A stretch of DNA of 64,000 nucleotides from Pseudomonadota bacterium (GTDB taxonomy: Bacteria > Bdellovibrionota > Bdellovibrionia > Bdellovibrionales > SG-bin7). This document shows positions 5,349 to 7,948 of this stretch, piece after piece (positions within the stretch are counted from its first letter, which is position 1; each line of letters starts with the position of its first letter). The notes beneath the pieces are model-generated. The model searched no databases. It was not told the DNA's origin and saw only the letters and a program-made list of their open reading frames with translations. The position numbers were made by a program, and so were the translations under genes. The DNA lies in assembly GCA_034439715.1 (NCBI GenBank), contig JAWXAY010000033.1, positions 15,647-79,646 of the forward strand. The letters run 5' to 3'.

Positions 5349-5433
5349 GCCCGGGTGGTGGAATTGGCAGACACGCTAGACTTAGGATCTAGTGCCGCAA
5401 GGTGTGCAGGTTCAAGTCCTGTCCCGGGTACCA
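5349..5433 (+). tRNA. tRNA-Leu (anticodon TAG)
   Basis: Acceptor stem GCCCGGG/CCCGGGT, D-arm GGAATTGGCAGAC, anticodon stem CTAGA-CTTAGGA-TCTAG, long variable arm, GTTCAAGTC T-loop, encoded CCA. Confidence 0.97.
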
Positions 5434-5580
5434 CTTATCAAAGTTGGTCGAAAAAGCACCTCTAAAAAAATTTAAAACGATGGTTTTAGTATTAGAAGGC
5501 CTTCAAAAGTAACCAACCCATTAGGCAGGCAATCTATTAATCGACGCTTAATCGGGTATTGGGTGAGCGCTATTGATTTG

Positions 5581-6012
5581 TCAGCTTGCCAAATCTTTAA
5601 TTTTTAAGATCGGATCTAAATCTTCATCGATTGCTCTAAGAAGCTCTGCGAGTTTATCGAGAGATGGCAAAACTTTCCCCTGTTCATACCGTCCATAGGC
5701 ATTGGGTGACTTCGAATGTAGACGTTTAGCCACTTCCATTAGAGTAAGCCCGCTTATGGCCCGCTGTCGACGCAGTAAAAGCCCTATTAATAATCGCTGT
5801 TCATTGGCTGAAACACTAAAACTGAGATCACCCAAAGGCTCAATCACCACAGCGAACCCTTTCTCATCCACGACTGTCTCAATGGCGTCCTTTGCCATAA
5901 GATAGGCGTCTTTTTTACTTTTACCTTGAGTAAAAATTCCAATGGCAGGTATTTCAATGGCCCAAATTTTTTCTTTCGAACTCGGTTTTTTCAAAAATCC
6001 CTCTAATTTCAT
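5581..6012 (-). CDS. hicB: HicB-family antitoxin with C-terminal XRE HTH
   Basis: WAIEIPAIGIFTQGKSKKDAYLMAKDAI HicB-like N-terminus; LTLMEVAKRL...YGRYEQG HTH; 4-nt overlap with hicA. Confidence 0.85.
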   Translation of the reverse strand: MKLEGFLKKPSSKEKIWAIEIPAIGIFTQGKSKKDAYLMAKDAIETVVDEKGFAVVIEPLGDLSFSVSANEQRLLIGLLLRRQRAISGLTLMEVAKRLHSKSPNAYGRYEQGKVLPSLDKLAELLRAIDEDLDPILKIKDLAS

Positions 6013-6200
6013 TTTGAACCTCTTATTTTATTGTACTGTTCCACTTCTTTAAGAATTCCCTTTGCCGTGTATTCATTAATTTCTCTGTGTCTTGGCACAG
6101 CAACGGCATTAATACCGTCAGTCCATTTATCGTGTTTAGACCCTGTGATTTGCCACCAGCCCAGCTGCTTTAGTTTTCGTTCCAGATCTCGACGCTTCAC
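6009..6200 (-). CDS. hicA: HicA-family mRNA interferase toxin
   Basis: 63 aa, MKRRDLERKLKQLGW...GSKHDKW...VPRHREINEYTAKGIL with the conserved GSxH motif. Confidence 0.9.
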   Translation of the reverse strand: MKRRDLERKLKQLGWWQITGSKHDKWTDGINAVAVPRHREINEYTAKGILKEVEQYNKIRGSK

Positions 6201-6206
6201 AAATCC

Positions 6207-6230
6207 ATTTTACACATAAATGTGTAAAAT
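6207..6230. promoter_or_regulatory. Probable HicB operator (perfect inverted repeat)
   Basis: ATTTTACACAT-AA-ATGTGTAAAAT, 11-bp arms, immediately upstream of the hicA start. Confidence 0.7.
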
Positions 6231-6355
6231 AAGCAAGTGATATTTAGCGCAGGAATCATCTAGAGGAAGGAAGCTATAATAATCTCAAAATAAGATTTTT
6301 ACTTTTAAAGCAAACCCAGTCGATTTCCCGAATTCAATAGGTAAGTGCAACTCCA

Positions 6356-6363
6356 GCCGATAA
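6356..6363 (+). promoter_or_regulatory. FliA/sigma28-like -10 box upstream of pilin-like gene
   Basis: GCCGATAA exact -10 consensus 7 nt before ATG 6371; -35 poorly matched. Confidence 0.45.
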
Positions 6364-6370
6364 AGAGAGT

Positions 6371-7159
6371 ATGGCGTTAAAAAATCAGGGTTTTTCACTT
6401 GTAAGCGTAATGGTGGCCGCTGGCTTGGGTCTAATAGTAATGACGGCAGTTACTCAACAATTTGTTAACCAGATTCGCATGACTCATTACCTCGAAGCTA
6501 AAATGGAGGCGAATCAATTTAAACATGAGCTTACATTGATGCTAGAAAAAAAATAAATTGCGACGTTAGTTTTGGTGGTTTGAATTTGAGTTTCGTAAGT
6601 GGCGCCGGAGGAGACAATGCTAATATTACCTCTTTAATTAATACCCCCCCCAACAAATCCACTTAATGTTTTAAAAATAAGTTATGGAAACAACAATAGG
6701 CTTATCAATGTAACTGAAGTTAATCTTTTTAGACCGACTCTCAAGTTAAACGGAGCACCTAATGATGGCTTAGTACCTCCAGGCGAATACGAAATGAAAC
6801 TAAAGATGACCGTCCAAGAAAGAGGCGGAACGAATAGGAGTTTTCCAGTTGACGGACCGACAGTGGTATTGAGCGTTACAGGAACAATCGTTGATGTGGA
6901 TGCTTGCGTTCTCGCGACTGCGGTCGCTGAGATGTGTACCGCACTAGGCGGTACAATGAGCGGCGCTAATTGTACCTTGCCAACAGTTCCGCCGTTTGTG
7001 CCAATGTACCAATGCATATTTGGTGGAGGCTCCTGTTCGACATGTAGAGGTCAGGTCAGTACTACCCCAATATCTTGCATATATGGTAGAGACAGCAGTG
7101 GCCAGGGCACAGGGAGTTTTTGCTCAGGGCCCACCATTTCTTGCCCCAGAATAAACTAA
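6371..7159 (+). pseudogene. Type IV pilin-like (class III signal peptide) protein interrupted by two compensating homopolymer frameshifts; 262 aa if repaired
   Basis: QG|FSLVSVMVAAGLG N-terminus; A8 at 6546-6553 and C8 at 6644-6651; A9 plus C7 gives one open frame joining ORFs 6371-6556 and 6794-7159; Cys-rich C-terminus. Confidence 0.8.
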
Positions 7160-7496
7160 AGTTTTACGTAGAGCTCGACGTTTGCATAGGAACTAGCTAT
7201 CTGTCTAAAATAAAACGCTCATGTCGGTTAAATTTGCTTTGGTATGGCGACGAAGTCAGGAATGTCAGATACTCCGCCGGCATAGTTCCGCTGCTCATTG
7301 AAGGAAAAAACACTGGTTTGTTCATTAGTTTAGAATTCTTCAGATTAGCATTTCAAGATAGTAGGTAAATTATGTTTTTATAGGCTTTATTAGGTGAAAA
7401 CTGACTGCCTAGGACTCGGATCTCCCCATTTTTGATAACACCTGCCCCCCGAGCCAAAATTTTGGCCAAAAGCCCCGAAAAATCCTGCTAATTTAT

Positions 7497-7885
7497 TTAG
7501 TGAAACTCAAAGCCCATCTGCGGAGGGGCGCGGGCAGGGTGGAGTGCCGGCGGCGAGGTCTCAAGGCCCAAGTGCGTGAGTATCTTCTCGATGATTTTTT
7601 TTTCGAGAATGGCCGCAATAATCTTGGCGTCACCCCCGCAGTTGCCGCAAGTGGTGACATCGATCTGAAAGACCCGCTTCATGAGCCTACCCCAAGAGAT
7701 CTGTCTGGCCGAGGCGGGTGGTTTGGGTTCAGTTTTATCTAAAACGTCATTGGGAGTTTTATTTTTGACCACAATTTTGGGTCGAGCCTTCGAGTTCGGA
7801 GCAAATACTCCGTGGTAACGGATGATGTGCATGCGGGGCGGTGGCACAAGGCTAGCTAGTTTTTCGATAAAATCCTGTCGCCCCG
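7497..7885 (-). mobile_element. IS91/ISCR-family (Y2) transposase C-terminal remnant
   Basis: DFIEKLASLVPPPRMHIIRYHGVFAPNS, WGRLMKRVFQIDVTTCGNCGG, KILTHLGL, PARAPP; N-terminal HUH region absent. Confidence 0.85.
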
Positions 7886-7948
7886 ACCATGTACAAACTC
7901 CGGGTTTTATTAACAACAGGCCGTTGGAAACAGTTTCAGTAACTAAAT

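Follow-up and report, generated by a model that had tools for sequence, protein, structure and literature searches.

A pilin-like gene interrupted at two homopolymer tracts in an uncultured Bdellovibrionota bacterium, and poly-C polymorphism of a cadherin-like lipoprotein gene in the same population

A pilin-like gene of an uncultured Bdellovibrionota bacterium is broken into three open segments, and both breaks fall exactly at homopolymers, a run of eight A and a run of eight C. The gene lies at positions 6371 to 7159 of the 64-kb stretch of DNA analysed here (hereafter the window). The same A8/C8 state was found in every public contig that covers both tracts, and we lean towards the view that slippage inactivated the gene and that it is silent throughout the populations sampled, either as a young pseudogene or as a deeply parked mutable locus. 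Elsewhere in the same genome, a poly-C tract in a gene for a cadherin-like lipoprotein exists in two lengths among samples, which is direct evidence of homopolymer ON/OFF polymorphism in a relative of Bdellovibrio.

The 5′ segment (6371 to 6556, plus strand) opens with an ATG in frame 0 and runs for 61 codons to a TAA stop (6554 to 6556). Its product has a prepilin-type N-terminus (KNQG/FSLVSVMVAAGLGLIV...) and most of a long N-terminal helix. The A8 tract (6546 to 6553, plus strand) is one A below an in-frame length (A9 or A6), and reads GA_A AAA AAA TAA in frame 0, that is, a heptamer A_AAA_AAA with the stop directly 3′ of it. The middle segment (6553 to 6645, plus strand) consists of 31 codons that are open in the −1 frame only (INCDVSFGGLNLSFVSGAGGDNANITSLINT), frame 0 containing six stops over the same stretch. 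The C8 tract (6644 to 6651, plus strand) is one C above the in-frame length C7, although C4 and C10 would also fit. It is the sole run of G or C of at least 8 within the 64-kb window and one of 18 genome-wide, and in its C7 state it gives a Pro-Pro insertion relative to the homologues. The 3′ segment (6644 to 7159, plus strand) is again in frame 0, with 171 codons and a stop at 7157 to 7159, and encodes the remainder of a conserved pilin-like head (to about residue 180) followed by a Cys-rich C-terminal domain ending in CPRIN. The 5′ and 3′ segments therefore share one frame and only the middle segment is shifted. The positions of both runs, the frame shift between them and the resumed frame to 7159 agree with the original prediction, and the three product sizes it had listed were all reproduced by a simulation of tract lengths: A9/C7 gives 262 aa, A8 with any C length gives 61 aa, and A9/C8 gives 98 aa. 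In the simulation the frame was restored whenever A6 or A9 was paired with C4, C7 or C10. A search of the locus for further decay (extra stops, indels or start loss) found none, the start being kept and all 31 + 171 downstream codons being open.

Two other ways of reading the locus were rejected. A compensated frameshift, with the whole gene in frame 0, is ruled out by the six stops in the middle segment and by homology in the −1 frame. Translation restart for the 3′ part would have to use position 6794, the first start in that frame, and would yield a product without the N-terminal export and assembly helix.

Public annotation of the gene does not reflect this structure. The exact 61-aa product is called on contigs in many public assemblies. 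In place of the 3′ part, the JGI, ENA and Logan contigs carry a call for a 111-aa ORF on the opposite strand (6682 to 7017, minus strand), which is probably a false call, and NCBI calls a 121-aa fragment (6794 to 7159, plus strand). With its 3′ part called as either the antisense ORF or the fragment, the locus is mis-annotated everywhere.

Homologues were sought by a six-frame search over 60 related genomes and by a search of 5.8 billion proteins. A handful of intact homologues were recovered, 51-57% identical and 228-284 aa long, which are uninterrupted through the region matching the −1-frame segment. In an alignment of seven sequences the −1-frame segment is colinear with the intact homologues and holds the invariant residues C64, F68 and G70; P97, L98 and Y105, just past the C run in the resumed frame, are invariant too. 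Because the intact homologues read through the middle segment, the three segments are, judged by this alignment, one former gene. At the site of the A8 tract the orthologues have GGA GAT GCT GCA or GGA AAT GAT GCG, compared with GAA AAA AAA (A)TA here, and at the site of the C8 tract they have TCT GGG ACA, compared with AAT ACC CCC CC here. Neither tract was found in the orthologues, which are plain single ORFs. With ordinary codons at both sites in the orthologues, both tracts are lineage-specific, and there is no conserved two-tract design; on this point the original prediction was not supported.

The family is small, with 12 cluster representatives at E < 1e-30 among 1.84 billion, and a family search of genome contigs with a four-sequence alignment returned two loci, both in Bdellovibrionota MAGs. 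The neighbourhood of the orthologues consists of different genes in each genome. The C-terminal domains also vary among family members, one protein from another metagenome (P0002) having a dermatopontin-like domain (PF14704). Another homologue from a different metagenome (P0013, 146 aa) stops abruptly within the conserved head (...MPVCTF), which could reflect a further truncated copy or the end of a contig.

The description of the gene as pilin-like was supported by a candidate prepilin N-terminal methylation motif and by an orthologue that models as a long helix and a β-sheet. The match of the window protein to the Pfam N_methyl family (PF07963) scores 20.4 bits, compared with a cut-off of 21.2. 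The same family matches 9 of 17 family members (best E-value 1e-6), several of the 17 being N-terminally truncated, and the NCBIfam prepilin matches are weak only. The glutamate at position +5 after the cleavage site is absent from the window protein, which has GFSLVSV, and each of the five homologues whose N-terminus is complete has S or G at +5. This glutamate is also missing from some minor pilins, for example those of the GspK type. An AlphaFold2 model of a 57% identical orthologue (L046) has a mean pLDDT of 81, and of about 90 over residues 20-170, with a helix at residues 10-59 followed by a four-stranded sheet and with low confidence in the Cys-rich C-terminal domain. Mapped onto this model, the A run comes where the long helix ends and the C run in a loop before the next helix, both tracts occupying loops in the modelled pilin fold. 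Foldseek comparison of the model with the PDB gave no match with E < 0.4, and a profile search of PDB sequences gave a weak match only, to the N-terminal helix of geopilin. The genome encodes two Peptidase_A24 (prepilin peptidase) matches above the cut-off. Taken together, the broken gene likely encoded a modular, minor-pilin-like protein of the pilin superfamily.

Two intact pilin-like genes are located in tandem on another contig of the genome (C16, locus L019; 3454-4437 and 4492-5370, both minus strand), encoding 327 and 292 aa, and both carry a canonical GFSLIEV. The C-terminal domain of the 292-aa paralogue is approximately 50% identical to that of the broken gene and also ends in CPRIN, and the N-terminal modules of the two differ. 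At the sequence level, this suggests domain shuffling among pilin-like scaffolds.

The pilin-like gene lies in an accessory stretch bordered by a tRNA-Leu gene (5349 to 5433, plus strand). Directly upstream of it and divergently oriented is a hicAB pair on the minus strand, with a hicB-like antitoxin gene (5581-6012; HTH_31/HTH_3) and a hicA-like toxin gene (6009-6200; HicA_toxin). Downstream is a Y2-type transposase remnant (7497 to 7916, minus strand; PF04986) in which only the last ~30 profile positions match (152-179 of 183). The region from 5349 to 7916 looks like a small decayed accessory islet beside a tRNA gene. This setting of tRNA, toxin-antitoxin and transposase genes, the variable neighbours of the orthologues and the presence of an intact paralogue of the C-terminal domain suggest that the gene is dispensable. 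Promoter and terminator scans around the gene found nothing above the shuffled expectation.

The genome is a metagenome bin of 111 contigs (3.26-Mb, 42% GC). We looked up the locus in public assemblies through two proteins, the 61-aa product (exact matches) and the product of the hicB-like gene beside it, the latter route being blind to tract state. Ten contigs cover both tracts, from at least five samples and three assemblers: one from ENA (ERZ505514), five from JGI (3300020213, 3300020596, 3300020219, 3300015360 and 3300020195) and four from Logan (SRR6448211, SRR6448213, SRR6448209 and SRR6448204), of which pairs of JGI and Logan contigs may stem from the same reads. All ten have A8/C8 and match the window at 100% identity over 1.2-6.2 kb. 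A census of JGI metagenome contigs for the exact DNA pattern returned one record only, which was already known. The ends of contigs from differing samples and assemblers coincide at 5390/5392, 6530, 6867/6871 and 7449; 6867/6871 is the start of the variable C-terminal domain and 6530 precedes the A run by 15 nt. These shared ends could be due to low coverage or strain variants.

We also asked how homopolymers behave across the genome. Frameshift-like signatures occur at 1.2% of A/T8 runs and 1.7% of A/T9+ runs, compared with 1.1% of A/T3-5 runs, and many other A/T8-9 runs in the window sit inside long open frames, so that the earlier observation of other A8-A9 runs staying in frame holds both in the window and genome-wide. 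The flagged A/T8+ sites that were inspected (14 of ~30) were ordinary gene junctions (e.g. ATG-AAAAAAAA), except for one putative transposase of the IS3 type. None of the other 13 showed a clear frame break at its A/T run; the transposase is split at A9G in the classic orfA/orfB arrangement (contig C37, minus strand, reverse-complement offsets 5854-5863). About ten runs of G/C8-10 are in frame within long ORFs, and many of the ORFs with G/C runs look like housekeeping genes by eye (PBP4, triose-phosphate isomerase, DnaE, IleRS, IF-3 and DnaJ-like). The break in the pilin-like gene is real and systematic homopolymer error is excluded. At the consensus level the assemblies are uniformly A8/C8.

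The number of G/C8+ runs genome-wide (18) is close to the ~19 predicted by our own estimate from counts and GC content, with a slight excess of G/C runs of at least 9. A genome-wide contingency design was therefore not supported, the number of such runs being near the base-composition prediction and many of them lying in housekeeping-looking ORFs. MutS and MutL are intact, and together with the tolerance of long G/C runs in essential genes this indicates that slippage is not extreme in this genome. Two of the longer runs stand just before a start codon: a G11 run (contig C26, 6181-6191) occupies the ribosome-binding-site position before the ATG of a secreted TGase_elicitor-like protein of 501 aa, and a G9 run (contig C70, 46827-46835) lies exactly at the ribosome-binding-site position before an ATG. 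The C26 run showed no polymorphism, being G11 too in the one other assembly retrieved.

Slipped-strand variation, which the original prediction had invoked for the pilin-like gene, is real at poly-C in this population, at a different gene. A tract on the minus strand of contig C29 (plus coordinates 114149-114156; loci L039-L043 and L049) lies in a gene for a lipoprotein with Cadherin_4/Cadherin_5/Big_9 repeats. With C7 the product is 705 aa and with C8 it is 568 aa, the C8 break falling inside a repeat unit. The C7 allele is present in SRR6448211, JGI 3300020213 and ERZ505514, an agreement of three assemblers on probably one sample, and the C8 allele in JGI 3300020057, JGI 3300020596, SRR6448212, GCA_964459655.1 and GCA_034439715.1. 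Five contigs span the tract, and their flanking DNA matches without a difference over 5-7.7 kb. As the two alleles occur in otherwise identical contigs, poly-C slippage occurs in this clonal population, and the detection of this difference means that an assembly look-up can reveal tract variation.

At the pilin-like gene no such variation was found. Tract-length polymorphism was absent from the ten contigs, all of which are A8/C8 as consensus sequences, and the products of nine simulated tract variants (A6, A7, A9, A10; C4, C6, C7, C8, C10) were absent from 15 billion proteins. The 98-aa variant used as a query recovered only the 61-aa product, in a one-member cluster, and the protein collection searched contained no full-length relative above 57% identity. 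Two scope conditions apply to these results: consensus assemblies are blind to a minority of ON cells, and the samples apparently represent one clonal population (0 SNPs), so that little evolutionary time was sampled.

The locus combines features of two kinds. In common with contingency loci, it has a repeat tract within the ORF at which a change of ±1 toggles between full-length and truncated products. In common with pseudogenes, it has lost the frame that intact orthologues keep, and this state is present in all assemblies. The expectation for a plain pseudogene was uniform A8/C8 with further decay; the uniformity is there at the consensus level, but the decay is not. We favour, as somewhat the better bet, inactivation by slippage. 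An accessory type-IV-pilin-like gene of 262 aa when intact would have been broken by two replication slips, in which A9 lost one A and C7 gained one C; the direction of both slips (A9 to A8 and C7 to C8) is inferred. Translation from the A8/C8 allele would end after 61 residues, so that only a stub of the N-terminal helix could be made, and the full-length protein is presumably not produced in a meaningful amount. As A8/C8 is the consensus in every sample assembled, the gene would be silent across the sampled population. It may be a young pseudogene in which the two sites most liable to mutate were hit first, or else a mutable locus resting in a double-OFF state beyond rescue by a single slip. 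Certain features sit less comfortably with inactivation. The sole lesions are the two tract shifts, as would be expected of a gene that is still used or has just been lost, and the most parsimonious ancestor, A9/C7, would already have had two long mutable runs in its first third. Two runs early in a gene for a surface protein are a typical layout for a contingency locus.

Some of these features also speak for an active switch. In that case both runs would slip to and fro at useful rates, and the ON state (A9/C7) would be favoured in certain settings, for instance when the prey changes or a pilus-specific phage attacks, with the sampled mats favouring OFF. The original prediction was of such a two-tract AND-gate; the part of it that stands is that the breaks lie exactly at homopolymers, and the part that lacks support is the switching, which was not seen in any of the ten contigs. 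We consider an active switch possible but doubtful. It would account for two long homopolymers in the 5′ third of a surface-protein gene, at modelled loop positions, and for the lack of any lesion besides the tracts, and it gains plausibility from the poly-C polymorphism that toggles the cadherin-like surface protein in the same clonal population and from known ORFs that switch through two homopolymers, such as N. meningitidis oatC (PMC2413038). However, no tract variant was present in the contigs or protein collections, whereas the cadherin-like gene varies among the same samples, and the orthologues lack the tracts. A return from double-OFF to ON would need two independent slips with no selectable intermediate. 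Intact mismatch repair and the absence of a genome-wide contingency design also count against it.

A second alternative is that the fixed A8/C8 allele is the working one, some full-length protein being made by a −1 shift at the A run and a +1 shift at the C run, through slippage of the ribosome or through an RNA polymerase that adds an A or drops a C. The slippery sequences are in the right frames, A_AAA_AAA in frame 0 followed by TAA, and CCC_CCC_C in the −1 frame. The A run fits the X_XXY_YYZ heptamer perfectly and has a stop directly after it; the product of a −1 slip there would be precisely the A9 protein, and that of a +1 slip on CCC_C precisely the C7 protein. RNA polymerase tends to slip on runs of at least eight A, and tRNA-Pro tends to shift by +1 at CCC-C sites. 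The allele is fixed with both downstream frames intact, and the IS3-type transposase on C37 is split at A9G, a type of site at which programmed −1 frameshifting is known from other systems. We nevertheless regard recoding as very unlikely. Stable RNA structure was not found 3′ of either tract, where folding was weaker than in shuffled sequences (z-scores of +1.1 and +0.9). A Shine-Dalgarno-like stimulator at a useful distance was likewise not found, the sole GGAGGA lying ~30 nt before the C run, nor was a slow codon after the C run. The arrangement is not conserved, the orthologues being single ORFs that lack the tracts, and the yield of two successive inefficient events would be very small. 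A programmed recoding mechanism is unlikely, and transcriptional slippage or low-level leakiness at the tracts is conceivable. It is harder still to credit that A8/C8 is functional in the sense that a −1 and a +1 recoding event, separated by 90 nt, maintain very low, stochastic levels of a pilus-tip-like protein with no change in the DNA. Least probable of all is that the true genome has A9/C7 and an intact gene and that A8/C8 is an error of sequencing or assembly. In favour of an error, both breaks lie at homopolymers with zero net change in length in a bin of 111 contigs, but three assemblers and at least five samples gave A8/C8, the same data sets separate C7 from C8 elsewhere consistently across assemblers, frameshift signatures are not in excess at long runs genome-wide and about ten G/C8-10 runs are in frame.

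For the pilin-like gene, which we think slippage inactivated, the outcome is a corrected record: the break is real, and the public annotation consists of a 61-aa stub and spurious ORFs. The C7/C8 difference between samples on C29 matters more, as it turns a cadherin-like surface lipoprotein on or off. Our literature searches turned up no paper that connects Bdellovibrio with homopolymer phase variation. If surface proteins of predators were phase-varied, this would bear on prey attachment, phage escape and the heterogeneity of clonal predator populations, and the pilin-like gene would be a second candidate.

Several known systems resemble the pilin-like gene in part. The pilC gene of Neisseria gonorrhoeae is described as phase-varied by a poly-G tract within the ORF (Jonsson et al. 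1991, as cited in PMC3031610). In both cases the ORF of a surface protein associated with pili has an early homopolymer, and a slip of ±1 in it truncates the product. However, pilC has one tract and its switching has been measured in culture, whereas the pilin-like gene has two tracts and no switching was observed; PilC is also a large non-pilin tip adhesin, and the product here would be a small pilin-like protein. In N. meningitidis oatC, two homopolymeric tracts in one ORF mediate ON:OFF switching (PMC2413038). The pilin-like gene likewise has two separate homopolymers, each able to break the frame, but oatC encodes a capsule O-acetyltransferase for which both ON and OFF isolates are documented, whereas here only a double-OFF allele was found.

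Poly-G/C contingency genes are also known from Campylobacter (PMC8355987). The likeness there is in G/C runs of ~8 or more in genes for surface structures and in tract polymorphism within a clonal population, which here was seen at the C29 gene. Campylobacter lacks MutS/MutL-type repair and its runs of this kind are concentrated in contingency genes. The genome analysed here, in contrast, has MutS and MutL and many long G/C runs in frame in housekeeping-looking ORFs. Helicobacter pylori futC combines a poly-C tract with a −1 translational frameshift cassette (A_AAA_AAG), a Shine-Dalgarno-like stimulator and a stem-loop. The pilin-like gene also has a poly-C run and an A-rich −1 slippery heptamer, so that DNA or ribosomal slippage could set its frame, but it has neither the stimulator nor the stem-loop. 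In insect endosymbionts, frameshifts at poly(A) tracts are reportedly rescued by transcriptional slippage, as Tamas et al. are said to have described in 2008. Those cases are similar in having fixed A-run frameshifts in otherwise intact genes, but their tracts are usually 9-10 or longer, in very AT-rich and repair-poor genomes, and one event suffices, whereas here a second, opposite event at the C run would be needed. Two-homopolymer and poly-G/C systems are therefore of a kind already known from pilC, oatC and Campylobacter, and what is new is the host lineage only, for which the clearest support comes from the cadherin-like gene rather than from the pilin-like gene.
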